Shown: in pieces, positions 3,671 through 64,000 of the stretch
Layout of the letters: each line of letters begins with the position of its first letter
How positions within the stretch are numbered: position 1 is the first letter of the stretch
Assembly: GCA_018814875.1 (NCBI GenBank)
Contig: JAHIYH010000045.1
Span: forward strand, 13,316 to 77,315
Direction of reading: 5' to 3'
Origin: Patescibacteria group bacterium
GTDB lineage: Bacteria; Patescibacteriota; Gracilibacteria; Peribacterales; Peribacteraceae
DNA: 64,000 bases
The notes under the pieces: generated by a model
Seen by the model: only the letters and a program-made list of their open reading frames with translations
What the model was told of the DNA's origin: nothing
Databases searched by the model: none
Translations under genes and position numbers: made by a program

Positions 3671-5292
3671 ATTTAGAGTCACGTCATAATTGGCATGAAT
3701 ACGATGCTATAAGAGAGAGCCGTCTTCTTAATAAAAATTTTGAACCCAAGATGACTTTTAATCTTGATCCGTATGAACCGGAGAAAAAGTATGATACGAG
3801 AGGAAATGAGGTTGATAATGAAGCAAGAGAACAAAGAAGCTGGACACGAAAGGAGTTTTCAGAGCATATGAAGAGTATTTTTGAGCATCATTATAATCAG
3901 CATAAGCAGTCTTCAGAGGATCTGGATGAAGCGGCTGAAGGGATGGGAATAGTACTCGATAAAATAGAAGAGGAAATATTCGAAAATAATGAAGAATTTC
4001 AGCGTGGATCTGCTGATTATTACAAGGCATATCAAAAAAGCTGGAAATTATATATGGATAATGCGAAATTTGATGCAAATAATTCAATTCTTAAATCAGG
4101 TGTATTTACACATAAAAAAGCTCCTGGTATTTACAAGAAAGGAAAACTTGTTGCCATCCCTGGTAATCTACCTTCCGGTGTAGGAACGAATTTTAATGCA
4201 CGTAGTGAGGTTGCGAGCGCGAATGTTAGAGAAATAGACGGAAAACCACGAGATTTAGATAGGGGATGGTTACTAAAAGAGTATGCGAATACAAAAGCAA
4301 CTCTTACAGGAATATGGAATAAGGAGAAATACCTCGAGAGTCATCCCGAAGCAACTGAGGAAGATTACAATCGTCTCTTAGAAAAGAGAGTATTCGAGAA
4401 AGCGAAATTTAGTGCAGATGATATTGCACTTTATAATCTTGAAAAGGAGCGTTATGTGGCACCACCTGAGCCGATTCTTGAACTGGGGAAATTGGAGGAT
4501 GCTGTAGATTTCCGTGATCGGGATGAGGTAGCAGAAGTTATGAGAAAAGCACTGGGTTTAAGCATTGACGATGAGAGCGATTTTAATAGTCAAATACATA
4601 TTGAAGAGCTAGAAGCAGAAAATAAACCGGAAGGTTATGCACAAGTGTTGACGTTCCGTACAAAGGGACCAAAACGTGAAGGTGAAGAAGTTAAAAGGCC
4701 GATTGATGGCTTGACATTAGTTGGACGTAAATTGGATAACACCAAAGAGGCAGAAGTGACTGTTCTAGATTTTAGGCAGATTGATGATCTTGCCAGTGAA
4801 GTAATTGGAGGAGATAAGGAAAAATTCTATTCTCATAGGGAACTCAAATTTCTGCATGATTGGTCAGATCAGTTGCAAAACAATGTTTTGAATCCACAAA
4901 TTTCTATAATTAGTGATGATGGTATAAATAACATTGCCTTAGTTCGTGGCATTATTGAACGCGGGAAAAGGCATAAGAAGATAGATAATTTTCTAGTAAG
5001 TAATAATAATAATTGGAAAGATAATGATTTTAGTACTAATGAAAATAAAATGAATACTTTTGTTGATAACATTAAGAAATTTGTTGAAGAGCAAGGTAAC
5101 CAAGAAGCTATGTGGGGAGATATTATAAAAGTATTACCTTCAAAGTTTGAAGGCAGAGTTGCAGAAGTAAAGACTGTGGCATTAATTAATGAGCTGGAAG
5201 CCTTAAGGATGTCTAATCCTTTGTATGCACAAGCACCAAAGGAAGAGAAAGAAGATGAAGAACCTGATGTGATAGCAATTGATACTGTTTAA
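3667..5292 (+). CDS. hypothetical protein (541 aa, charged, no recognisable domain)
   Basis: long uninterrupted ORF in AT-rich DNA; coupled to upstream ORF; ORFan to my eye. Confidence 0.7.
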   Translation: MNLESRHNWHEYDAIRESRLLNKNFEPKMTFNLDPYEPEKKYDTRGNEVDNEAREQRSWTRKEFSEHMKSIFEHHYNQHKQSSEDLDEAAEGMGIVLDKIEEEIFENNEEFQRGSADYYKAYQKSWKLYMDNAKFDANNSILKSGVFTHKKAPGIYKKGKLVAIPGNLPSGVGTNFNARSEVASANVREIDGKPRDLDRGWLLKEYANTKATLTGIWNKEKYLESHPEATEEDYNRLLEKRVFEKAKFSADDIALYNLEKERYVAPPEPILELGKLEDAVDFRDRDEVAEVMRKALGLSIDDESDFNSQIHIEELEAENKPEGYAQVLTFRTKGPKREGEEVKRPIDGLTLVGRKLDNTKEAEVTVLDFRQIDDLASEVIGGDKEKFYSHRELKFLHDWSDQLQNNVLNPQISIISDDGINNIALVRGIIERGKRHKKIDNFLVSNNNNWKDNDFSTNENKMNTFVDNIKKFVEEQGNQEAMWGDIIKVLPSKFEGRVAEVKTVALINELEALRMSNPLYAQAPKEEKEDEEPDVIAIDTV

Positions 5293-5360
5293 AAAACATA
5301 GTAAAACCCCCACCACCGACTAGCGATGGTGAGGATTTTGAGTGGGGGACAGTAACGTGA

Positions 5361-7443: not shown

Positions 7444-7538
7444 ATTGCTCAATTGCTCCATTTTTCCATTGCTCGCAGGCGATTCTCAAAGCTGATTCAT
7501 CTGATTCCAACAATGGAACAATGAAACAATGGAACCAT
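7444..7538. repeat. hairpin with tandem-repeat arms (CAATGGAA-type 8-nt units)
   Basis: left arm attgctcaattgctccatttttccattgctc is complementary to right arm caacaatggaacaatgaaacaatggaacca; rpsL-rpsG spacer. Confidence 0.65.
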
Positions 7539-7562: not shown

Positions 7563-8015
7563 ATGGCCAAGCCTATCAAACAATACATCCCAAAAGATTC
7601 CGATCCTCTGATCGAGAAGTTCATTTGCTGCATGATGATGGGAGGCAAGAAGAGTATTGCGCGTAAGGTGTTTCAGGATTCTCTGGGAGTGATAAAAACG
7701 CGTACGAATGATGATCCAAAAGATATCTTCAATAAAGCTATCTTAAATGTCACTCCGCTTGTGGAAGTGCGTCCAAAGCGTGTAGGAGGTTCGGTGTATC
7801 AGGTTCCTACAGAAGTACCGCCAAAGCGACAGCAGGCACTCTCCATTCGCTGGATTATAAAAGCGGCCCGCGAACGTAAAGGTATGCCCATGTCGCAGAA
7901 GTTAGCTATGGAATTCCTAGATGCATCTGCAGACCAAGGAGCTGCAGTAAAAAAGAAACAGGATGTGTTGAGGATGGCACAGGCGAATAAGGCGTTTGCG
8001 CATCTTGCCAAGTAA
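7563..8015 (+). CDS. rpsG: 30S ribosomal protein S7
   Basis: S7 family sequence (VEVRPKRVGGSVYQVP), 150 aa, follows rpsL. Confidence 0.97.
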   Translation: MAKPIKQYIPKDSDPLIEKFICCMMMGGKKSIARKVFQDSLGVIKTRTNDDPKDIFNKAILNVTPLVEVRPKRVGGSVYQVPTEVPPKRQQALSIRWIIKAARERKGMPMSQKLAMEFLDASADQGAAVKKKQDVLRMAQANKAFAHLAK

Positions 8016-8040
8016 GGAAGGTAAAGAAGGTCAGGAAGGT
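8016..8040. repeat. left arm (GGTMARGAA)n flanking four-helix-bundle gene
   Basis: ggaaggtaaagaaggtcaggaaggt, reverse complement of the array at 8476..8535. Confidence 0.7.
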
Positions 8041-8429
8041 ATTGTTGTTACTGGAGTTTTTGAGCTGCACGACTTTATTAGTTTGAAAAGTAGAAATGAA
8101 ACACAGTTAAGTTGATCTAAGAGTTGTTTGTATATTTCTTCATTCAAATATCCTAAATCGCTCGCGAGTTCCAAAAAATTATCAACTTCTGCTGCAGATG
8201 CATATGCTCTTTCGTAATAGATCTTTCTGTGTGGGGCAGTGCTCATGCGTGATCCTTCAACAATTTGTGCCCCAATAGAACTTGCTGCACGTCGCAATTG
8301 GCTTGTGATACCGAATTTCTCTTCTTTAGGAAATGTAAGAGTTGCACGATAAATCATTAATGTGAATTTGTGTGATTCCTGCCATACGATCAGTTTTCTA
8401 AAGCCGTTCTTAAATTTCATATTTGACAT
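8031..8429 (-). CDS. four-helix-bundle protein (23S rRNA intervening-sequence protein family)
   Basis: LIVWQESHKF...QLRRAASSIGAQIVEG motif typical of this family; antisense to the rpsG-fusA transcription direction. Confidence 0.85.
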   Translation of the reverse strand: MSNMKFKNGFRKLIVWQESHKFTLMIYRATLTFPKEEKFGITSQLRRAASSIGAQIVEGSRMSTAPHRKIYYERAYASAAEVDNFLELASDLGYLNEEIYKQLLDQLNCVSFLLFKLIKSCSSKTPVTTIPS

Positions 8430-8475
8430 GTGTACAAACGTACACCCTATTCAGTTGTTGTGCAATAGAAAAATA

Positions 8476-8535
8476 CCTACTTTACCTTCCTTACCTTCTT
8501 TACCTTCTTTACCTTCTTTACTTTCCTTACCTTCT
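8476..8535. repeat. right arm (CCTTCTTTA/CCTTCCTTA)n flanking four-helix-bundle gene
   Basis: cctactttaccttccttaccttctttaccttctttaccttctttactttccttaccttc; 9-nt period. Confidence 0.7.
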
Positions 8536-11331: not shown

Positions 11332-12198
11332 ATGCAATCGAATGGAACAATTCGCATAGCGGTACAGAGGTCGGGAAGACTATCTGAGGGATCACTTGAT
11401 CTTCTGAAGAATATGGGGCTTCAATTTGAGACTTATCAGAATCGTCTTTTTACGCGATGTCGGAATGAGTCTCTTGATATACTGTTTCTTCGTGATGACG
11501 ACATTCCAGAGTATGTTCAGAATGGCACCGCGGATCTGGGGATTGTTGGTAGCAATCTTCTTGATGAGAGTGGTGCAAAAGTGGAGCGTATGCTTTCACT
11601 TGATTTCGGATTTTGTACGTTAGCTATTGCTGTTCCGGAACAGAGCAATTACAAATCTATTGCCGATCTTTCGGGAAAGAAAATTGCCACATCCTATCCT
11701 CAAACACTTAAGCGGTATTTGGCAGACAACAAAGTGGATGCTGAGGTGATCGTTCTAAAGGGATGTGTAGAAATTGCACCTGCATTACAAGTTGCGGATG
11801 CAATTTGTGATTTGGTTTCCACTGGCAGCACACTCAGAACAAATAGACTGAAAGTTCTGGAAGTGGTTTCGAAAAGCCAAGCAACACTTATTTGTACGCC
11901 AAATCGCTCAGGTGGGAAGAAAGAGCTCATTGATCGGCTATTACTTCGCGCCAATGGTGTTCTTGAGGCCGGTGCGTTCAAATACATAATGTTCAATTTG
12001 CCAGAGAAGAGACTTAAGGATGCGAAAGTTCTTGTACCCGGTTGCGATAGTCCAACAGTGATTCCACTTGCGGATCCACAGATGGTTGCTGTCCACTCTG
12101 TAGTAGAAGAAGAGCGATTCTGGGAAGTTGTAGAGAAGATCAAAGGATGTGGTGGATCCGGGATTCTAGTTTCTCCTATTGAAAAATTCATAAGATGA
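11332..12198 (+). CDS. hisG: ATP phosphoribosyltransferase, long form
   Basis: 288 aa with C-terminal regulatory domain; first gene of his operon. Confidence 0.92.
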   Translation: MQSNGTIRIAVQRSGRLSEGSLDLLKNMGLQFETYQNRLFTRCRNESLDILFLRDDDIPEYVQNGTADLGIVGSNLLDESGAKVERMLSLDFGFCTLAIAVPEQSNYKSIADLSGKKIATSYPQTLKRYLADNKVDAEVIVLKGCVEIAPALQVADAICDLVSTGSTLRTNRLKVLEVVSKSQATLICTPNRSGGKKELIDRLLLRANGVLEAGAFKYIMFNLPEKRLKDAKVLVPGCDSPTVIPLADPQMVAVHSVVEEERFWEVVEKIKGCGGSGILVSPIEKFIR

Positions 12199-23620: not shown

Positions 23621-23968
23621 ATGGAAGAACTTGATATCCCCATTCTTCGCAAATGTTATGATCTTTATAAGACCTTTCACGGACTGCGCGGTCTTGTATC
23701 CAAAGCAGACCGTTATACTCTTTGGCAAAGGTCGGAAAATCTGATCTTGGATGTTATCGAAGGTATTCTGTTTGCAAGTCAGCTTCCTAAGGCTAAAAAG
23801 CTGCCACACTTGGAACAAGTGAGTATGAAACTCAATATGCTTCGTATTTTTCTGCGTCTCACAAAAGAAACAAAGATACTCGATCTTAAGAAGTGTCTCC
23901 TCTTACAAGAGATAGTCGACGAAATTGGTAGAATGCTTGGAGGATGGATGAAATCAGTGAAGGACTAA
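23621..23968 (+). CDS. avd: Avd-like accessory variability determinant (small basic four-helix-bundle protein)
   Basis: 115 aa, helical and Lys/Arg-rich, distant relative of the IVS-protein family; TR starts 47 nt after its stop codon. Confidence 0.7.
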   Translation: MEELDIPILRKCYDLYKTFHGLRGLVSKADRYTLWQRSENLILDVIEGILFASQLPKAKKLPHLEQVSMKLNMLRIFLRLTKETKILDLKKCLLLQEIVDEIGRMLGGWMKSVKD

Positions 23969-23996: not shown

Positions 23997-24014
23997 TAGT
24001 AGAGATGGGGAGAA

Positions 24015-24131
24015 GGACTGCCGAGCGGCCGACAACCACAAGTTGTCATTGCGATTGTCATCCAAGTTTCAGTTGACGTTCACGCGACCCTCGTTGATAT
24101 CGAGTTCGACGTAGTTGTCATCAGGGAGCGC
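24015..24131 (-). other. DGR template repeat (TR), 117 nt
   Basis: aligns gap-free to VR1 and VR2; the minus-sense TR has 29 A; in-frame reading gives ALPDDNYVELDINEGRVNVN*NLDDNRNDNLWLSAARQS (AAC-rich, contains a stop, so non-coding). Confidence 0.9.
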
Positions 24132-24291: not shown

Positions 24292-24538
24292 ATCGTGCTC
24301 CATAGAGACACGTTACTCTGGTGAGTTTCCACAATCGCTATCCGCTTAGTGGTAGCAGAGATGAGGTGCACTGCGAGACGAAATCGTAATCTCGGCTACA
24401 AAAGCATTGCACATATTGAGTATATCAAAAAAAGAACCCCCGCGAAAAAAATGTCGCGGAGGTTCCAGCCTTCGCCTATCGGCTACGGCCGGCAGGCAAG
24501 GTGTCAAAAGGGTCAAGCCCTCAAGACTTCAAGGTTCA
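24292..24538. repeat. conserved 3' flank of target gene 1 (copy a of ~247-bp repeat)
   Basis: about 6 mismatches in 247 nt versus 25437..25683 by hand alignment; contains terminator and GC-rich element 24466..24500. Confidence 0.85.
24427..24465 (-). terminator. rho-independent terminator of target gene 1
   Basis: minus strand gaacctccgcga-N8-tcgcgggggttc followed by TTTTTTT. Confidence 0.7.
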
Positions 24539-25225
24539 GGACTTCCGAGCGGCCGACAGCCACAAGTGGCCATAGCGACCGCCACCCAAGCCGCAGACGA
24601 CGACCACGCGACCCCCGTCGATATCGAGCGCGACGTAGTCGCCATCAGGGAGCGCTTCTTCGCAACGACACCAGTCGTTTCTCAGGAGATCGTCGCCAAC
24701 CTCCGTCAGATGGACAAGTAGGGCTGTCGCGGCGACACAAACAGGTGCCGGTTGCCATTCAGCGTCAATACCGGACAGATGTTCAGTCTGCTCACTCCAT
24801 TTTTTGCGGTTCGAGTTCGGAACAGGTAGTAGTAGACGGTAATAGCCCGACTCTGCTTTCCATTCGTGCTGCTCGTACCAGTCCTGATCTTGCATCATGC
24901 GCTCTTGTCCAGCTTTGCTTTCGCGCAGCTCTTTTAGACTCCAACCACCGTAATAGATGACGACTTCGCCATCTTCGGGCTTCGGAGTTGGGACGTTGCA
25001 CTCTGCAGGCAGACCGAGGATACGGCTTACCGCAGTAGCATCGTAGACGATGCCATGCTGGGGACATCCTGCTTGCATGTGACGGACGAGACGTTGCATT
25101 TGAGACGGATCATCAATGCTCGGCTGAAGATCAGTCGAGAGATCGAGACCCTGCTTAGCAGCGCGTTCTGCCCATGCCAGCAGCTTCTTGGTAACAGCAA
25201 ATTCGTCGACAATAGGGTTAGCCAT
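24536..25225 (-). CDS. DGR variable protein 1 (229 aa from the ATG with RBS)
   Basis: aaggag RBS before ATG 25225 (ORF-track start 25282 unlikely); C-terminal 39 codons are VR1; paralog of 25681..26355; no N-terminal hydrophobic segment. Confidence 0.85.
   Translation of the reverse strand: MANPIVDEFAVTKKLLAWAERAAKQGLDLSTDLQPSIDDPSQMQRLVRHMQAGCPQHGIVYDATAVSRILGLPAECNVPTPKPEDGEVVIYYGGWSLKELRESKAGQERMMQDQDWYEQHEWKAESGYYRLLLPVPNSNRKKWSEQTEHLSGIDAEWQPAPVCVAATALLVHLTEVGDDLLRNDWCRCEEALPDGDYVALDIDGGRVVVVCGLGGGRYGHLWLSAARKS
24539..24655 (-). other. DGR variable region VR1
   Basis: 20 substitutions versus TR, all at TR adenines, plus 1 non-A difference and 1 in the terminal GC-rich IMH-like segment (hand count); encodes ALPDGDYVALDIDGGRVVVVCGLGGGRYGHLWLSAARKS*. 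Confidence 0.9.
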
Positions 25226-25329
25226 TATCGTTCTCCTTTTGTCCTCAAACCGTGAGGAACGGGCTTGCTCGGAATGAGACAAGCATGCTACGCCCTTTCA
25301 AAGGCACAGGACGCTTGTCTCAGTGAGAC

Positions 25330-25437
25330 CTTGACGATGCTCTGAAAGACCATCATTATATAGTTTATAACTAAATTCATATCTGTCAATGTTCGATTTT
25401 GTCCTATACTGCCAAATCTGTTTGTAAATATGGTTAA
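25330..25437. repeat. 108-bp repeat, copy a (5' region of target 1)
   Basis: identical by eye to 26488..26595; carries TTGACG-N17-CATTAT on the plus strand. Confidence 0.85.
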
Positions 25438-25683
25438 TCGTGCTCCATAGAGACACGTTACTCTGGTGAGTTTCCACAATCGCTATCCGCTTAGTGGTAG
25501 CAGAGATGAGGTGCACTGCGAGACGAAATTGTAATCTCGGCTTCAATAGCATTACACATATCAAGTATATCAAAAAAAGAACCCCCGCGAAAAAAATGTC
25601 GCGGAGGTTCCAGCCTTCGCCTATCGGCTACGGCCGGCAGGCAAGGTGTCAAAAGGGTCAAGCCCTCAAGACTTCAAGGTTCA
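25437..25683. repeat. conserved 3' flank of target gene 2 (copy b)
   Basis: see 24292..24538. Confidence 0.85.
25572..25610 (-). terminator. rho-independent terminator of target gene 2
   Basis: same hairpin plus T-run as 24427..24465. Confidence 0.7.
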
Positions 25684-26355
25684 GGACTTCCGAGCGGCCG
25701 ACAACCACAAGTTGCCACGGCGATTGCCATCCAAGAAGCAGTAGACGTACACGCGACCCTCGTGGATATCGAGTACGACGTAGAGGCCATCAGGGAGCGC
25801 CTCTTCGCAACGACACCAGTCGTTTTTGAGAAGATCGTTTCTGGTCTCCTTCAAATGAACGAGCAGGGTGGAAGCGCAGAGTGCAACTGGAGCAACTTCT
25901 TCACCAGGCAGAAGGAGATCCTTCTGTTCGGTTAAGTTTTTCCTGTTGCTGTCCGGCACTGGCAAACGGACACGGTAGATGCCCGCCGTCAGCTTCGCAC
26001 TTGCGCAGTCGTACTTGTCGTACCAATCCTGCTGGTGCATCAGCTCCTTGCCGACCTCACAGTCACGCAGATCTTGCAAAGACCAGTCTCCGACGCGGAT
26101 AATGATCTCGTCAGGTGCGGGTTCTGGGAGCGGTTCCGTACTCGCTTCTCCGAAGCCGAGGATTGCAATGGCATCGTAGGTGAAGGACGGAAGTCGCACC
26201 GGCCACACGTCTGCAAGACGTTGCATAGAAGCAGCGTCAGCGTCGAGCATGGCAAGCCATCGCTCTGGCGTGATACCCGCCTCTTGGAGTCGCTTTAGGC
26301 CTGTCGTAATCTTCTTCTGTGGCAGACCAGTCAAGCTTGTTGCGGCGGTCTTCAT
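25681..26355 (-). CDS. DGR variable protein 2 (224 aa)
   Basis: aaggag RBS; C-terminal VR2; roughly half of residues shared with protein 1 over the C-terminal ~150 aa (GDWSL..L, QDWY, LPVP.SNRK, NDWCRCEEALPDG). Confidence 0.85.
   Translation of the reverse strand: MKTAATSLTGLPQKKITTGLKRLQEAGITPERWLAMLDADAASMQRLADVWPVRLPSFTYDAIAILGFGEASTEPLPEPAPDEIIIRVGDWSLQDLRDCEVGKELMHQQDWYDKYDCASAKLTAGIYRVRLPVPDSNRKNLTEQKDLLLPGEEVAPVALCASTLLVHLKETRNDLLKNDWCRCEEALPDGLYVVLDIHEGRVYVYCFLDGNRRGNLWLSAARKS
25684..25800 (-). other. DGR variable region VR2
   Basis: 14 substitutions versus TR, all at TR adenines, plus the shared IMH-like difference; encodes ALPDGLYVVLDIHEGRVYVYCFLDGNRRGNLWLSAARKS*. Confidence 0.9.
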
Positions 26356-26487: not shown

Positions 26488-26595
26488 CTTGACGATGCTC
26501 TGAAAGACCATCATTATATAGTTTATAACTAAATTCATATCTGTCAATGTTCGATTTTGTCCTATACTGCCAAATCTGTTTGTAAATATGGTTAA
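26488..26595. repeat. 108-bp repeat, copy b (divergent region between target 2 and RT)
   Basis: identical by eye to 25330..25437. Confidence 0.85.
26489..26517 (+). promoter_or_regulatory. candidate promoter for the RT gene
   Basis: TTGACG - 17 nt - CATTAT, about 85 nt upstream of RT ATG; the same motif is duplicated at 25331..25359. Confidence 0.4.
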
Positions 26596-26603
26596 ATGAA
26601 CAA

Positions 26604-27653
26604 ATGAAAGTATATAGAAACATCTTTGAACGGATCATTTCGATGGAGAACATTTTTACTGCGTGGGAGGAGTTTCGTAAAGGAAAGCAAGCACGAATGG
26701 ATGTGCAGCAGTTTGAGCGCCACCTTGAACAAAATCTTTTTCAATTACACAGGGAACTTTCGGGCGGCACCTATAAACATCAACCCTATAGTGCCTTTAC
26801 AATCTGTGATCCAAAACAACGTCATATTCACAAAGCATCTGTTCGTGATCGTATCGTTCACCATGCCGTATTCTCTGTTCTCAATCCGATTTTCGAGCCG
26901 ACGTTTATTGCTCATTCTTTCTCGTGTAGAAAGGACAAAGGTACACACAAAGCAGTAGATGCGCTGGAACGAATGTTGCGTAAGGAAAGCAGAAATAATA
27001 GCCGTACCTGTTTTGCCCTTCAGTGTGATATCAGCAAATTTTTCGATTCTGTGTCGCACCCAATTCTAAAATCCCAGATCACAAAGCGCATCCGTGATAG
27101 AGATGTCCTCTTACTGATGGATGAAATAATCGGTAGCTTCACTGCTCCGCAATTCGATACCGTTTCGCAGTCTGGCATTCCCATTGGGAATCTCACGTCA
27201 CAGCTCTTTGCCAACGTGTACCTCAATGCCTTGGATCAATTTATGAAGCATGAATTGAAGGTATGTCACTATGCACGCTACACTGACGATTTTGTGATCG
27301 TATCTACAGATCGTGTGTATCTACAATCTCTCATTAAGACTATTGGATCATTCCTCCAACAGGAACTTTCTCTTGATCTGCATCCACGCAAGGTCACAAT
27401 CCGAAAGTTCACACAGGGTATAGATTTTCTTGGATATGTACTTCTTCCTCATCATCGGGTTCTGCGCACACGCACAAAACATCGCATGTTTCGCAAGCTT
27501 CATAAGAGGGCATCGATACATAAAACAGGATCGGAAACCGCTGAAAGTGTTGAGCAATCTCTGTATTCGTATCTTGGTGTTCTCTCTCATGCCAACACCT
27601 ACAGGCTTCGCTCCAAACTTCTCAATCATTATTGGTTCTGGATGACGGAGTAG
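26604..27653 (+). CDS. DGR-type reverse transcriptase
   Basis: RT motifs 1-7 with IGNLTSQ (the I/LGxxxSQ DGR signature in place of the group II QGxxxSP) and YTDDF (YxDD); 349 aa, no maturase or endonuclease domain. Confidence 0.9.
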   Translation: MKVYRNIFERIISMENIFTAWEEFRKGKQARMDVQQFERHLEQNLFQLHRELSGGTYKHQPYSAFTICDPKQRHIHKASVRDRIVHHAVFSVLNPIFEPTFIAHSFSCRKDKGTHKAVDALERMLRKESRNNSRTCFALQCDISKFFDSVSHPILKSQITKRIRDRDVLLLMDEIIGSFTAPQFDTVSQSGIPIGNLTSQLFANVYLNALDQFMKHELKVCHYARYTDDFVIVSTDRVYLQSLIKTIGSFLQQELSLDLHPRKVTIRKFTQGIDFLGYVLLPHHRVLRTRTKHRMFRKLHKRASIHKTGSETAESVEQSLYSYLGVLSHANTYRLRSKLLNHYWFWMTE

Positions 27654-28309: not shown

Positions 28310-28600
28310 TCACCAAGAGGCCAAATCATCATCAGGAGCTGCTTTATTTTGAATCCGTTTTCCGCACAGAGCGCATTCATGAAGGATGACCCACCCTTTT
28401 TTGGCGTTTTGATTGAGTTCAATAGGATGCATCAATCCGCCACATTTTGATTCTCTGTCTCCGGGGCCTTCTTCATCAACATGTTTTGAGCATAGGCAGT
28501 ACGAACAGTGGTTTCTGTAGCTACCATTTTCGAGTGGTTGCACTTCTTTATTGCAATTATCACAGACGAACGGTTCTTGGCGGGGGATGAAAGTGGACAA
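28310..28600 (-). CDS. RNHCP domain-containing zinc-ribbon protein
   Basis: CDNC...YRNHCSYCLCSKHVD...CGG...CALCG pattern; TTG start. Confidence 0.6.
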   Translation of the reverse strand: MSTFIPRQEPFVCDNCNKEVQPLENGSYRNHCSYCLCSKHVDEEGPGDRESKCGGLMHPIELNQNAKKGWVILHECALCGKRIQNKAAPDDDLASW

Positions 28601-28640
28601 GGGGGAAAAAGAGGAAAAGGAATTAAAGGAGAAAAAAGAG
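28601..28640. repeat. purine-rich arm (plus strand) flanking four-helix-bundle gene
   Basis: gggggaaaaagaggaaaaggaattaaaggagaaaaaagag, complementary to 29027..29070. Confidence 0.65.
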
Positions 28641-28641
28641 A

Positions 28642-29019
28642 TTACTTATTAAGTATGCCAGATCGAAATTTATTGAGTAGATAACTAACTTTTCCAACTT
28701 GATTGTTGAGTTCCTCGTATTGTTCTGCGGTGATGTAATCTAATCTTGAGCTAAGCGAGAGTTGGTAGTCCAATTCTTCCAATGAACCTTCGGCATGCTC
28801 AAGATAGTGAAGTCGCTCCTTATTTGAGCGTTTCGTATTGCCTTCAACAATGTTGGTCGGGACACTTGTGGCAGATCGTCTTATCTGCGCACAGAGAGCA
28901 TATCGTTCTTCAGGAGGAAATTTAGGAAGTAATTTATAAACTTCGAGACAGAGTGCATCTGCCTCTTTCCAAACAATCAAATTCTGATAAGGGCGTTTTC
29001 TCATAGAAAAGTTATTCAC
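28642..29019 (-). CDS. four-helix-bundle protein (23S rRNA IVS protein family)
   Basis: LIVWKEADALCLEVY...QIRRSATSVPTNIVEG motif; GTG start. Confidence 0.85.
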   Translation of the reverse strand: MNNFSMRKRPYQNLIVWKEADALCLEVYKLLPKFPPEERYALCAQIRRSATSVPTNIVEGNTKRSNKERLHYLEHAEGSLEELDYQLSLSSRLDYITAEQYEELNNQVGKVSYLLNKFRSGILNK

Positions 29020-29026
29020 GATAACA

Positions 29027-29070
29027 CCCTTTTTCTCCTTTGTCTCATTTTTCTCCTTTATCTCCTTTAT
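29027..29070. repeat. pyrimidine-rich arm (plus strand) flanking four-helix-bundle gene
   Basis: ccctttttctcctttgtctcatttttctcctttatctcctttat. Confidence 0.65.
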
Positions 29071-30164
29071 TAGACATTAAACTTAAACAGCATCACATCC
29101 CCATCCTTTACTAAGTATCCCTTCCCTTCGCTTCGCATCTTCCCCCTTTCCTTTGCGCCAGCTTCCCCGCCAAATTCTACAAAGTCATCGTAAGCAATTG
29201 TTTCTGCACGAATGAACCCTTTCTCGAAGTCTGTGTGGATCACCCCTGCAGCCTGTGGTGCTTTGGAGCCTTCGCGAACAGTCCACGCGCGTGCTTCCTT
29301 GGGGCCTGCTGTAAAGAAGGTGATGTAACCTAGTGCAGAGTATGCGGCTCGTGCAAGTGAATCGAGTCCTGACGAATTTACTTTGAATTCACTTAAAAAC
29401 TCTTTGGTTTCTTCTGCAGAGAGATCTTGCAAATCTTCTTCTATCTTTGCAGAAATCGTCACCACTTCACTTTCTTCCGGAAGCCCAAGTTGTTCACGTG
29501 CTTCGTGCACACTAAGAGTGTGAAGTTGATTTTCGGAAACATTTGCTGCGTAAATAATCGGTTTATTGGTCATAAGATTAAATGTGCTCATGATCTTTGC
29601 TTCATCTTCGTTAAGCTGAGTAGTAGATGCGAAGAGCGTTTGTTCTAGTTGAGCTTTTACTTTCTCCAGAACTTGGGCTTCCTTTTGTTTTTCTGTACCC
29701 CCAATCTTGGCAGCATTACCGATCTTATCGAATCGATTCTCTATTGTCTGAAGATCAGAAAGGCAAAGTTCTGTTTCTATTGTCTCTCTGTCACGTTTGG
29801 GATCTACTGCTCCTTCCACATGTGTTACGTTTTGATCATCAAAGAATCGTACTATGTGGCAGAGAGCATTAACTTCTCGTATTGCTCCCAGAAATTTGTT
29901 CCCCAGTCCTTCTCCTTTGTGGGCTCCTTTAACTAGTCCTGCAATGTCCAGAAATTCAACTGTTGCTGGTACAACCTTTTCTGGTTTCACTATCTCAGTA
30001 ATTTTGTCTAATCGTTCATCAGGAACTTTTACAATTCCAACGTTAGGATCAATAGTACAGAAAGGGAAGTTTCCTGCTTCTGCTCCACGTGTTCTAGTGA
30101 GCGCATTAAAGAGCGTGGATTTGCCTACGTTAGGAAGACCGATGATGCCGATTTGCATAGCCAT
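29070..30164 (-). CDS. ychF: ribosome-binding ATPase YchF
   Basis: IGIIGLPNVGKSTLFNALT G1 motif, C-terminal TGS-like domain (GFIRAE...); start trimmed to MAMQIGIIG. Confidence 0.93.
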   Translation of the reverse strand: MAMQIGIIGLPNVGKSTLFNALTRTRGAEAGNFPFCTIDPNVGIVKVPDERLDKITEIVKPEKVVPATVEFLDIAGLVKGAHKGEGLGNKFLGAIREVNALCHIVRFFDDQNVTHVEGAVDPKRDRETIETELCLSDLQTIENRFDKIGNAAKIGGTEKQKEAQVLEKVKAQLEQTLFASTTQLNEDEAKIMSTFNLMTNKPIIYAANVSENQLHTLSVHEAREQLGLPEESEVVTISAKIEEDLQDLSAEETKEFLSEFKVNSSGLDSLARAAYSALGYITFFTAGPKEARAWTVREGSKAPQAAGVIHTDFEKGFIRAETIAYDDFVEFGGEAGAKERGKMRSEGKGYLVKDGDVMLFKFNV

Positions 30165-30217
30165 TGATGGGCATAGTACTTTGTTCGATTGATGTAGCAA
30201 AATATTCTCTTGTGATA

Positions 30218-30383
30218 GGAAACCAAGGAATCCTAAGAAACCTAAGAATCCAAAGAATGGTTATGTTTTTATCGACATAAATCTTGATAGATGTTTCACA
30301 ACAGCCCCTTGGATTCCTTGGTTTCCTTGGTTTCTTAGGATTCCTTGGTTTCTTCGGATTCCTTGGTTTCCTTAATTTCTTAG
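30218..30383. repeat. long hairpin with (CCAARGAAW)n 9-nt-unit arms
   Basis: ggaaaccaaggaatcctaagaaacctaagaatccaaagaatgg ... cccttggattccttggtttccttggtttcttaggattccttggtttcttcggattccttggtttcc; lies in a divergent promoter region. Confidence 0.7.
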
Positions 30384-36857: not shown

Positions 36858-36937
36858 TGGAAAGAAACCAAAGAATCCGAGGAAACCAAAGAATCCAAAG
36901 GGTAAGACTGTTAGTCCTTTGGTTTCCTAGGTTTCTT
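36858..36937. repeat. hairpin with (CCAARGAAW)n arms
   Basis: tggaaagaaaccaaagaatccgaggaaaccaaagaatccaaaggg versus cctttggtttcctaggtttctt. Confidence 0.65.
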
Positions 36938-38455: not shown

Positions 38456-38490
38456 ATGGGAATGGGGTGAAGTTACGAGAGAATCGGATT

Positions 38491-38597
38491 GTTTCATTGT
38501 TCCATTGTTGGTGACTACTTCGAGAATCGCTTGCTTGCCCTGAGTGAGTGTAGTGATATCGAAGGGCGAACAATGGAGCAATGAAGCAATGGAACAG
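38491..38597. repeat. hairpin with CAATGGAA-type arms
   Basis: gtttcattgttccattgttg versus gaacaatggagcaatgaagcaatggaacag. Confidence 0.6.
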
Positions 38598-40522: not shown

Positions 40523-40616
40523 GCATTGTTCAATTGTTCCATGGTTCCATTGTTCTAAAGAGGCACAAGCCTGTTTATCGCTTGCGAACAATGGAGCAAT
40601 GAAACCATGGAGCAAT
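40523..40616. repeat. hairpin with CAATGGAA-type arms
   Basis: gcattgttcaattgttccatggttccattgttc versus gaacaatggagcaatgaaaccatggagcaat; divergent spacer. Confidence 0.65.
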
Positions 40617-42376: not shown

Positions 42377-42565
42377 AGGAATGTAGAGGAATCCAAAGAA
42401 ACCAAAGAAACCAAGGAATCCGAAGGGCGATTTTAGTCTTTGTGTAGCGAATCTATATTATTCTTTGGATTCCTTGGATTCTTAGGTTTCCTTGGATTCT
42501 TAGGTTTCCTTGGATTCTTAGGTTTCTTTGGATTCTTTGGATTCTTTGGATTCCTTCCTCTACAA
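42377..42565. repeat. long hairpin with (CCAARGAAW)n arms
   Basis: aggaatgtagaggaatccaaagaaaccaaagaaaccaaggaatccgaaggg versus about 100 nt of ttctttggattccttggattcttaggtttcc repeats. Confidence 0.7.
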
Positions 42566-45197: not shown

Positions 45198-47282
<2,085 letters not shown>

Positions 47283-47286
47283 CACA

Positions 47287-47425
47287 AGGGGTAAGGGGAA
47301 AAGGGAAAAGGGAAAAGGGTAAGGGGAAAAGGGAAAAGGGTAAGGGGAAAAGGGAAAAGGGTAAGGGGAAAAGGTAAAGGGAAAAGGGTAAGGGGAAAAG
47401 GTAAAGGGAAAAGGGTAAGGGGAAA
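47287..47425. repeat. purine-rich arm: about 140 nt of GGGTAAGGGGAAAAGGGAAAAG-type tandem repeats
   Basis: higher-order repeat of GGGAAAAG / GGTAAGG units; complementary to 47840..47907. Confidence 0.75.
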
Positions 47426-47479
47426 ATGAATGCATGGAATGTTTGACATGCATAAATGATTGAATGAAGATGAGAAGCT

Positions 47480-47839: not shown

Positions 47840-47907
47840 TTTCCCCCTTTCCCTTTACCCCTTACACCTTTTACATTCCCCCTTACCCTTTCCCCCCTTT
47901 CCCTTTC
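47840..47907. repeat. pyrimidine-rich arm complementary to 47287..47425
   Basis: tttccccctttccctttaccccttacaccttttacattcccccttaccctttccccccttt... Confidence 0.7.
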
Positions 47908-47908
47908 G

Positions 47909-49255
47909 TCAGTCTTCATCCACATCCACAAACTGATCTCGCATCGTGTATGTGTCGAGTTTGTCTTTTCCGCCGAGAAGTTCGATTACTTTTGGAATAG
48001 CTTCTTCGAACGGTATCTCTTTTTGTTTTCCTGCCGCCATATCTTTCAAAATAATCGTGCCACCTTTTACTTCCATCTTACCAAGCAAGAGCGTGTAGCG
48101 TGCATCAAATTTATCTGCCAAGCGCATCTGACTCTTCAGACTTGCTTCGCCGAGTGCTCCCAATGTGTGTACACCCTTGTCACGAAGTTCTGAGATGAGT
48201 TTTAGGCATGTCTTCTTTGCCTCCGGTCCTAATTGTGCCACAAAGACATCAACTTGGTCTTTGTGTGGAACTTTTATACCAGCTTGTTTCATGTGCCAGA
48301 CTATGCGCTCGAGCCCACCAGCGAAGCCAATGCCAGGCGTAGGTTGTCCTCCAAAGAGTTCTATTAGACCGTCATAGCGTCCACCTCCGCCAACCGCATT
48401 CTGGGAGCCTGTTTCGTTGTCTAGGAATTCAAACACGGTTTGTGTGTAGTAATCTAGTCCTCGTACGAGTGTTGGATTTTCAACGTACTTAATATCCAAT
48501 TCATCCAGATATTCCAGAACTGTTTTGTGATATTCCTTACTCTCATCGTCCAAGAACTGATCCATAGCTGGTGCGTTCTTAAGAAGAATTTGAGTATCCT
48601 CTTCCTTGGAATCCAAAAGTCGAAGAGGATTAGTTTGAAGTCTTGCCTGATCAAGTTCGGGCAGATTACGTTCTTTTCCAATGAAGAAGTCTTTTAGAGC
48701 TTCGGTGTATGCTGCGCGATTCTCCGCGGTCCCAATGTTATTAATATTTAGTTCTAAGCGGTCTAGAATCTTGATGTCACCAAAGATCTTGGCTAGCACA
48801 AGAATTAGCTGCGCATCAATACTTGGATCCTTGAGCCCGATCACTTCCATATTGAATTGATGGAACTGACGGTAGCGTCCTTTCTGTGGGCGATCATGCC
48901 TAAAGCACTGACCAATGGCATATAGTTCCACTGGTTGTGGGAGTTGTTGCATCCCGTGTTCTATGAAGGATCGGCAAATACCGGCAGTAAATTCCGGGCG
49001 TAATGCAAATTTAGCTTCCTCATCTTCCTTTTGCTTGGAGGTAACCAGAAATAGCTCCTTTTCCACGATATCCGTGTGTTCGCCAATTCCACGTTCAAAG
49101 ATTGCTTTGTTCTCGAACATTGGTGTATCAATCCGCTTGTAACCAGCTTGCCTAGCTCTATGACGCACAGCTTTCTTTATATACGTCATGTATTGATGAT
49201 CCTCTGGGAGGACATCGTGTGTGCCTTTCGGTGTTCGGAATAATGGTTGTGACAT
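47909..49255 (-). CDS. hisS: histidine--tRNA ligase
   Basis: class II motifs (FRHDRPQKGRYRQF, GGGGRYDGL), 448 aa. Confidence 0.95.
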   Translation of the reverse strand: MSQPLFRTPKGTHDVLPEDHQYMTYIKKAVRHRARQAGYKRIDTPMFENKAIFERGIGEHTDIVEKELFLVTSKQKEDEEAKFALRPEFTAGICRSFIEHGMQQLPQPVELYAIGQCFRHDRPQKGRYRQFHQFNMEVIGLKDPSIDAQLILVLAKIFGDIKILDRLELNINNIGTAENRAAYTEALKDFFIGKERNLPELDQARLQTNPLRLLDSKEEDTQILLKNAPAMDQFLDDESKEYHKTVLEYLDELDIKYVENPTLVRGLDYYTQTVFEFLDNETGSQNAVGGGGRYDGLIELFGGQPTPGIGFAGGLERIVWHMKQAGIKVPHKDQVDVFVAQLGPEAKKTCLKLISELRDKGVHTLGALGEASLKSQMRLADKFDARYTLLLGKMEVKGGTIILKDMAAGKQKEIPFEEAIPKVIELLGGKDKLDTYTMRDQFVDVDED

Positions 49256-58243: not shown

Positions 58244-58355
58244 TCAAGAAGGTAAAGAAGGTCAAGAAGGTAAGGAAAGTAGGGGTTGTTATTCAGAATA
58301 CCGTCTTTACCTTCAATACCTTCCTTACCTTCCTTACCTACCTTACCTTCCTTAC
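58244..58355. repeat. hairpin with (GGTMARGAA)n arms, no cargo gene
   Basis: tcaagaaggtaaagaaggtcaagaaggtaaggaaagtagg versus ctttaccttcaataccttccttaccttccttacctaccttaccttccttac. Confidence 0.7.
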
Positions 58356-63816: not shown

Positions 63817-63931
63817 GGGGTAAGGAAGGTATTGAAGGTAAGGAAGGTCAGGAAGGTCAGGAAAGGAGGGCAAGGTTATACCTTCCTTACATTCTTTACT
63901 TTCTTTACTTTCTTTACATTCAATACCTTCC
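63817..63931. repeat. hairpin with (GGTMARGAA)n arms, no cargo gene
   Basis: ggggtaaggaaggtattgaaggtaaggaaggtcaggaaggtcaggaaagg versus ccttccttacattctttactttctttactttctttacattcaataccttcc. Confidence 0.7.
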
Positions 63932-64000
63932 TATTGTACACAAAATCGAGGGATTGCAGAATACATCAAAATATTGTATAATATAAGTATATGAAATTTC

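Follow-up and report, generated by a model that had tools for sequence, protein, structure and literature searches.

Helix 45 of the 23S ribosomal RNA (rRNA) is interrupted in Leptospira, Coxiella burnetii and Haemophilus by intervening sequences (IVSs) that bear an open reading frame (ORF), that of C. burnetii encoding S23p. The corresponding protein family, PF05635/TIGR02436 (23S rRNA-intervening-sequence protein), is very large, a single-sequence search reaching at least 15,685 clusters at 50% identity, and is without known function outside diversity-generating retroelements (DGRs). Here we examine a 64-kb stretch of DNA from a member of the Peribacteraceae (Peregrinibacteria, candidate phyla radiation (CPR)), a placement given by its EF-G, GyrB and YchF proteins, referred to below as the window, in which three members of this family, termed four-helix-bundle (4HB) genes, each lie between inverted arrays of short tandem repeats in the spacers of protein-coding genes. 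The architecture of the rRNA IVS is thus present in gene spacers, and is general for the family.

In the C. burnetii 23S IVS, GACAGAT heptamers (two to three full copies, depending on the strain, and a degenerate GACAGAA) precede the S23p ORF, and RNase III excises the IVS, cutting at the first heptamer repeat (PMC4990558). Arrays of heptamers have also been described in gene spacers. Xanthomonas carries intergenic GGGAATC arrays, with 70-75 convergent pairs on opposite strands, which are transcribed and to which no function has been assigned; Nostoc carries intergenic heptamer arrays of GGGGA(C/T)T with a few paired repeats only, and the 4HB family is unmentioned in this work (PMC4692102). 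No paper linking the family to inverted tandem arrays outside rRNA was found in our search, outside which most subscription journals lie.

Three repeat-armed cassettes

An earlier note on this DNA had described three genes of the IVS-protein family flanked by inverted tandem arrays. The arms, located using Tandem Repeats Finder and an inverted-repeat search, form three pairs and enclose 3/3 of the window's 4HB genes as inverted arrays of tandem units of 7-9 nt, arranged as follows.

8010..8043, cassette 1 left arm: (GTAAGGAAG)n; begins at the stop codon of rpsG (7563-8015) and runs into the final codons of gene 1
8031..8429, minus strand, 4HB gene 1: 132 aa; antisense in the str operon (rpsL-rpsG-cassette-fusA)
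8472..8535, cassette 1 right arm: (TACCTTCTT)n, about 7 copies
28599..28641, cassette 2 arm, purine-rich on the plus strand: period 9, unit GGAAAAAGA; in gene sense the 3' pyrimidine arm; abuts the start of the RNHCP-domain gene (28310-28600, minus strand)
28642..29019, minus strand, 4HB gene 2: 125 aa; ychF-RNHCP spacer
29028..29068, cassette 2 arm, pyrimidine-rich on the plus strand: period 9, unit CCTTTTTCT; in gene sense the 5' purine arm; stops 2 nt short of the stop codon of ychF (29070-30200, minus strand)
47286..47426, cassette 3 purine arm: GGGAAAA / GGGTAAG heptamers, about 19 copies; begins 4 nt past the gyrB stop codon
47480..47839, plus strand, 4HB gene 3: 119 aa; gyrB-hisS spacer
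47840..47907, cassette 3 pyrimidine arm: complement of the GGGAAAA/GGGTAAG heptamers; stops 2 nt before the stop codon of hisS (47909-49255, minus strand), which flanks the cassette

The two arms are 85-91% complementary in cassette 1, 76% in cassette 2 and 79% over 67 nt in cassette 3. Minimum-energy folds pair the arms across 400-460-nt loops in all three, in line with the long hairpins that the earlier note had described, with z-scores of -3.5, -2.2 and -4.7 for cassettes 1, 2 and 3, respectively; cassettes 1 and 2 fold better than at least 98 of 100 shuffles, and cassette 3 better than 20/20. Cassette 1 pairs even better on the opposite, host-operon strand (z -5.7).

All three proteins fall well above the curated cut-offs of the family, in agreement with the assignment made in the note: genes 1, 2 and 3 score 108.8, 122.1 and 85.8 bits with PF05635 (cut-off 33.8) and 96.1, 113.6 and 98.8 bits with TIGR02436 (cut-off 24). 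They are old paralogues, with pairwise identities of only 22-36%. The closest solved structure to gene 2 is 2GSC (E 2.7e-22), and 2RLD is also matched by sequence, both with five chains per crystal entry. A hidden Markov model (HMM) built from the family reveals no further strong member in the window; a fourth, weaker match, at 23621-23968, is a bAvd-like protein (PF22296) that belongs to a DGR and lacks enclosing arrays. Profile searches found no transposase domain in the three cassette genes, PADLOC gave no defence-system match, and a viral-contig scan with the three-protein alignment returned no relative.

The arrays come to within 0-5 nt of the stop codons of neighbouring housekeeping genes (8010-8015, 29068-29070, 47282-47286 and 47907-47909). 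The cassette 3 purine arm (GGGGAAAAGGGAAAAGGGTAAGGGG...) has a canonical G-quadruplex-forming pattern, as do the arms of several Nitrospira loci (L019, L022 and L029); in such arms, quadruplex formation could compete with stem formation.

Enclosure of the family across bacteria

To survey the family, one genome per species was scanned with the three-protein alignment, yielding 74 loci that span Bacteroidota, Gammaproteobacteria, Nitrospirota, Acidobacteriota, Gemmatimonadota, Planctomycetota, Chloroflexota, Omnitrophota, many Patescibacteria and others (loci and relatives are given L numbers below). With enclosure defined as an ungapped inverted repeat around the gene with at least 18 matched bases, 54/74 4HB genes (73%) are enclosed compared with 3/730 same-size random windows in the same loci (0.4%). 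The earlier note had set a condition against its own proposal, namely that 4HB genes should prove to be enclosed no more often than other small genes; it clearly did not hold. When called genes are used, 49/76 4HB genes are enclosed, as against 8/236 other ORFs of 80-170 aa in the same loci; these eight include four antisense shadows of 4HB genes and two products of cross-pairing from one spacer to the next. The control set of 80 unrelated loci gives 0/180 small ORFs. The control loci are generic YchF homologues (50-57% identity) from a metagenome scan and are not matched to the 4HB loci by taxonomy.

Tandem Repeats Finder places a 6-10-nt array within about 220 nt of the gene in 69/74 cases and on both sides in 52/74, with reverse-complementary units on the two sides for 42/74 genes. 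The arm period is 7 nt in 41 cases, 8 in 9 and 9 in 7, and paralogue pairs have related arm units, as in L025. Enclosure by inverted arrays characterises the PF05635/TIGR02436 family as a whole, across its phyla. Hairpins of the same make without a gene also accompany the family: 41 such empty hairpins occur around 4HB genes in 1.08 Mb outside the window, often with the unit of the neighbouring cassette, compared with about 4 tandem-arm hairpins and zero 4HB genes in 930 kb of control loci, a roughly tenfold excess that is only indicative because the controls are unmatched by taxonomy.

Most candidates for other cargo in long-loop tandem hairpins are spacer cross-pairings or antisense shadows of 4HB genes. 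In L052, a PDDEXK_3 / GxxExxY gene (PF13366, E 5e-41) lies in a repeat-armed hairpin at 11506-12046 (arms 11506-11529 and 12023-12046), so a second small-gene family has the hairpin architecture at least once. L026 holds a 139-aa ORF without an assigned family as hairpin cargo, and in L064 a GIY-YIG-like ORF is enclosed, but by non-tandem arms. Two further arrangements were seen in passing. In L071 (5861-6313), about 51 nt from the 3' coding sequence of the host gene are present as direct copies on either side of a GxxExxY-like gene, an arrangement that looks like insertion into the host gene end with the host reading frame preserved. In L025 (8200-11300), from the cultured planctomycete Candidatus Laterigemmans baculatus, four 4HB cassettes are, by eye, apparently interleaved with tRNA-like sequences; if correct, this is another RNA-processing context.

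Descent and loss at orthologous sites

The three spacers of the window were compared with the orthologous sites of relatives, whose divergence is given in brackets as the identity of a flanking housekeeping protein. At rpsG-fusA, L160 (EF-G 86%) keeps the gene in the same orientation, with a protein 63% identical and arms of (AGGTTGGGT)n. L156 (EF-G 95%), L158 (EF-G 91%) and L161 (EF-G 84%) are without the gene and have empty hairpins of (ATTAGGTTT)n, (GGATGGTT)n and (AATTTTC)n, respectively. At gyrB-hisS, L164 (GyrB 91%) has a complete cassette with a protein 83% identical, L166 (GyrB 85%) a 68-aa gene remnant and the left array only, and L168 (GyrB 85%) an empty (CAGAATT)n hairpin, while L162/L163 (GyrB 91%) have a new (AGTGAAT)n hairpin beside a retained old (CCCTTT)n right arm. 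At ychF-RNHCP, the cassette is present in L169 (YchF 90%; protein 88% identical, unit AAAGGAGAN as in the window), L002 (YchF 74%; protein 72% identical) and L003 (YchF 62%; protein 64% identical). It is absent from L170 (YchF 87%), which has an unrelated 292-nt spacer without arrays, and from L171 and L172 (YchF 76%), which have no spacer, the stop codon of ychF overlapping the start codon of the RNHCP gene. The spacer of L170 carries, at the cassette's place (5093-5329), a 78-aa antisense ORF with no Pfam match and no repeat arrays.

Across these relatives, the identity of the 4HB protein tracks that of the housekeeping proteins. Between gene 3 and its L164 orthologue, dN is 0.108, about twice that of GyrB, and dS is 1.58; the low dN/dS of about 0.07 indicates purifying selection on the retained protein. 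On the reading favoured below, the 4HB gene would be selected but dispensable. Loss takes several forms: of the gene alone, leaving an empty tandem-arm hairpin; of part of the gene by truncation; or of the whole palindrome. The simplest history would be vertical descent of old cassettes with repeated loss. The earlier note had proposed that the gene is cargo either inserted into or lost from a pre-existing hairpin, and these comparisons divide the proposal: loss is seen at rpsG-fusA and at gyrB-hisS, and insertion is not observed.

The repeat unit is replaced far faster than the flanking genes diverge, and yet the two arms remain complementary; in L003, a C in the purine arm is matched by a G in the pyrimidine arm. 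Slippage and template switching between arms are an established mechanism of quasi-palindrome correction, and fast unit turnover with kept complementarity fits concerted evolution by slippage together with template switching or conversion between the arms.

Promoter-like boxes within the loops

Two of the loops hold boxes resembling promoter elements between the 5' arm, in gene sense, and the start codon.

8437..8465, minus strand, cassette 1: TTGCAC (8465-8460), 17 nt, TACGTT (8442-8437), 7 nt, ATG at 8429
47443..47471, plus strand, cassette 3: TTGACA (47443-47448), 17 nt, GAAGAT (47466-47471), 8 nt, ATG

The L160 counterpart of the cassette 1 boxes is TTGCAG-17-TACTGT-7-ATG, giving a common pattern of TTGCA(C/G)-17-TACnnT-7-ATG, and the cassette 3 pattern, TTGAC(A/G)-17-GAnnnT-8-ATG, is kept in L164 and L166. 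This conservation suggests that each gene may have its own loop promoter and a nearly leaderless mRNA starting downstream of the 5' arm. With such a start, the stem would form in read-through transcripts and not in the gene's own mRNA. No intrinsic terminator (short G+C-rich stem, small loop and U-run) was called at the arms by a consensus scan, which is blind to long-loop stems; the long stem itself might still terminate transcription.

Empty hairpins and hairpin polarity

About 17 tandem-arm hairpins occur in the 64-kb window, of which about 14 are gene-less, with loops of 0-60 nt; the density, counting both kinds, is about 1 per 3.8 kb, in spacers of every gene orientation. The following illustrate the range.

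58248..58355, empty hairpin: 9-mer family of cassette 1; loop about 25 nt; fold z -4.0
63820..63932, empty hairpin: 9-mer family of cassette 1; fold z -8.8
30217..30372, empty hairpin: unit GAAACCAAA / GAATCCAAA; between the divergent genes ychF and sortase; unit family recurs at 36871-36937 and 42387-42555
7452..7530, empty pyrimidine-first hairpin: ATTGCTCC / CAATGGAA; rpsL-rpsG spacer; family (unit ATTGTTCC) recurs at 38488-38590 and 40525-40616, all pyrimidine-first

The first two are those near 58244 and 63817 that the earlier note had matched to the arms of cassette 1, and the match stands: they share its 9-mer family and form long stems. The hairpins at 7452-7530, 38488-38590 and 40525-40616 have a common loop motif (GCAAGCGATTCTC-like) in either orientation, and a similar motif occurs in the rpsG-fusA hairpin of L158 (2636-2749), despite different arms. 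A loop common to the ATTGTTCC-family hairpins and L158, with differing arms, hints that some empty hairpins disperse as whole units. Another loop motif, CGCAAGCGATTYTC, was considered as a general feature and set aside, as it occurs in only two window hairpins (at most 2 mismatches) and one relative.

In the relatives, a 6-10-nt tandem array stands in nearly every spacer, about 1 per 1-2 kb, and the units of these spacer arrays differ even between genomes with 95% identical EF-G.

In the earlier note, the cassettes always had the same polarity in gene sense, with the purine-rich arm 5'. The purine-first polarity of the hairpins themselves is a real regularity: over all data, gene-bearing hairpins are purine-first versus pyrimidine-first by 41:3 and empty hairpins by 36:9, and a separate, earlier tally gave 52/59 cassettes with the purine-richer arm 5'. 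The gene-sense part of the claim follows from symmetry, because a purine-first hairpin reads identically on both strands and so carries no gene-orientation information; polarity as a marker of gene orientation is thereby ruled out. The prediction from Rho loading that cassettes are more strictly purine-first than empty hairpins was not established (41:3 versus 36:9, Fisher p = 0.12).

A model of the cassette and its alternatives

The reading that we favour, tentatively, is that the window loci are IVS-type gene cassettes in which gene and arms form one unit, the arms insulate the insert in read-through RNA, and the unit decays to empty hairpins; on this reading, the ORF-bearing 23S rRNA IVS would be the special case of the cassette located in rDNA. 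The gene would be transcribed from its putative promoter in the loop as a nearly leaderless mRNA, and host transcripts reading through from either side would fold the arms into a duplex of at least 25 bp. By analogy with the rRNA versions, we infer that RNase III would cut such stems in an mRNA context too, and the cut would remove the insert from, or insulate it within, the host transcript. An insert isolated by stem cleavage would therefore be tolerable in operons and in rRNA. Complementarity of the arms would be kept by slippage and by template switching or gene conversion between them, in addition to selection for pairing, and many empty short-tandem-repeat palindromes would be relics of such cassettes.

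Several observations weigh against this model. After loss of the gene the hairpin can remain, or a new one can even take its place, which suggests a life independent of the gene, and most spacers of the window genome carry arrays, so that arms need not belong to a gene. Every resolvable case fits vertical descent followed by loss, with no recent insertion among them. At the RNA level, a sigma-70 consensus scan called no promoter in any cassette, so that the case for loop promoters is the conservation of the boxes; no RNase III signature motif was found in the sequences examined; and arm mismatches in the gene-sense transcript show no preference for G-U over A-C (71 versus 61), so that the stem could equally act on DNA or in both transcripts. 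The control loci of the family survey, finally, are unmatched by taxonomy.

A wider version of the cassette model, possible but doubtful, holds that a PF05635 gene with short-tandem arms constitutes a ubiquitous, hitherto unrecognised element class, of which the rRNA IVS is one form and the intergenic heptamer palindromes (the GGGAATC pairs of Xanthomonas, cyanobacterial arrays like the short tandemly repeated repetitive (STRR) sequences, and the spacer arrays of CPR bacteria) are gene-less relics or non-autonomous derivatives. In its strongest form, a ring of the protein might recognise or propagate the tandem units, maybe with a reverse transcriptase acting in trans, by analogy with DGR homing, which requires a hairpin.

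It is unlikely, in our estimate, that the hairpins are autonomous features of certain genomes, arising by slippage and template switching or spreading like miniature mobile elements, with the 4HB gene a lodger that preferentially enters the loops, or lasts in them, because a loop is harmless; the hairpins might then serve the host as signals for RNA processing, stability or termination. The abundance of hairpins speaks for this, with 14 of about 17 in the 64 kb gene-less, in spacers of every gene orientation, and an array every 1-2 kb or so in relatives. So do the survival of the hairpin beyond the gene at rpsG-fusA and gyrB-hisS, the new unit beside the old right arm in L162, the hairpin families that recur at several loci with common loop motifs, and the 70-75 convergent GGGAATC pairs of Xanthomonas (PMC4692102). 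However, 4HB genes are armed in phyla and loci where other hairpins are scarce or not seen; the control loci have no 4HB genes and almost no such hairpins; the arms of related paralogues are related too, as would follow if a gene were copied along with its arms; and no pair of filled and unfilled sites indicating gain was found.

An alternative in which protein and repeats are partners is in our view improbable. A ring oligomer would bind its own arm units and the dispersed hairpins, as RNA or DNA, and so autoregulate, protect or propagate them; models are the transposase RAYT (the tyrosine transposase associated with repetitive extragenic palindromic (REP) sequences), which is flanked by REPs, and TRAP, which wraps tandem triplets around a ring. 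The repeat family of cassette 1 is dispersed in the window (58248 and 63820), with similar cases in L007, L030, L039, L041 and L057, and empty hairpins tend to be found where 4HB genes are. Purifying selection acts on the protein; it is related to Avd, which binds nucleic acid and a reverse transcriptase, and the closest solved structures have five chains per entry. Yet the 4HB protein is without a catalytic domain, hairpins persist in relatives that lack a local gene, and units that differ wholly between close orthologues (window versus L160) would demand very fast co-evolution of the protein.

A role at the level of DNA, in which the arms either let the gene flip as an on/off switch or extrude as cruciforms with an effect on replication or recombination, is highly improbable: 25-65-bp inverted repeats do flank a small gene, inversion would preserve the symmetric architecture and the arm mismatch spectrum is without RNA-strand bias, but no window cassette has a recombinase gene beside it, a 400-nt loop makes cruciform extrusion unlikely, and a switch is made less likely by the orientation of the gene, which never varies within any of the three sets of orthologues (window and L160; window, L169, L002 and L003; window, L164 and L166).

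The cassette model, or the architecture that prompts it, has several uses. A near-universal, easily scored genomic signature is a first handle on a family otherwise without one, presenting its genes as insulated, dispensable but selected cassettes; it recasts the ORF-bearing rRNA IVS as one landing place of a general element and offers a possible origin for at least some of the intergenic heptamer palindromes that have been unexplained for decades. The arms mark true gene boundaries for annotation and flag likely breaks in short-read assemblies. Concrete experiments also become possible, such as the use of rnc mutants, arm swaps and protein-repeat binding assays.

Comparison with known systems

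As in REP or REPIN-RAYT systems, inverted copies of a short repeat stand on both sides of the gene, and members of the same repeat family are scattered through spacers of that genome. Unlike RAYT, the 4HB protein has no transposase or other catalytic domain, and unlike REPs, the arms are tandem arrays with fast-changing units rather than a conserved palindrome. When compared with REPs and miniature inverted-repeat transposable elements, the units differ between cassettes and between close orthologues, and dispersed copies of the same family do exist.

The cassette genes are distant relatives of the DGR protein Avd, of the same fold family, as the earlier note had stated: weak matches are found in NCBIfam and to PHROG 3206, with NF033474, the Avd equivalog, giving 21.2 and 46 bits for two cassette genes and no match for the third (cut-off 80). 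Unlike Avd, the three genes do not lie beside a reverse transcriptase or a template repeat; the nearest reverse transcriptase belongs to a separate DGR of the window, laid out as follows.

23621-23968, bAvd-like gene: PF22296, 57.9 bits; without inverted arrays
24014-24131, template-like repeat: 118 nt
24538-24655 (81%) and 25683-25800 (87%), diverged repeat copies: at the 3' ends of ORFs 24536-25282 and 25681-26355, both on the minus strand
26604-27653, reverse transcriptase: RVT_1

Two further repeats lie in this region, one direct and of 300 nt (24292-24591 and 25437-25736), the other exact and of 108 nt (25330-25437 and 26488-26595). In L171 and L170, an Avd-like gene is kept beside a ribonucleotide reductase gene, without the block of reverse transcriptase and target.

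With the heptamers of Xanthomonas and Nostoc, the cassette arms have in common that they are tandem 7-nt (6-9-nt) spacer units paired on opposite strands, and the convergent pairs of Xanthomonas, with one array per strand, correspond to the purine- or G-first polarity of the cassettes. Unlike in those genomes, many different units are present in the window genome, and the arrays enclose a specific gene family.

With the ORF-bearing rRNA IVS, the window cassettes share the PF05635 family, inverted flanks that pair as a long stem and hold the ORF in their loop, and a sporadic distribution among relatives. That the geometry is that of an rRNA IVS set in protein-gene spacers, as the earlier note had put it, is borne out by the comparable heptamers and S23p ORF of Coxiella (PMC4990558). 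Unlike the rRNA IVS, the cassettes lie in the rpsG-fusA, ychF-RNHCP and gyrB-hisS spacers and not in rDNA; no rRNA gene is found at the cassettes, and Rfam finds one tRNA only in the window. And unlike the Coxiella ORF, which is reported to be decaying and probably untranslated, the window genes are under purifying selection and have putative promoters of their own.

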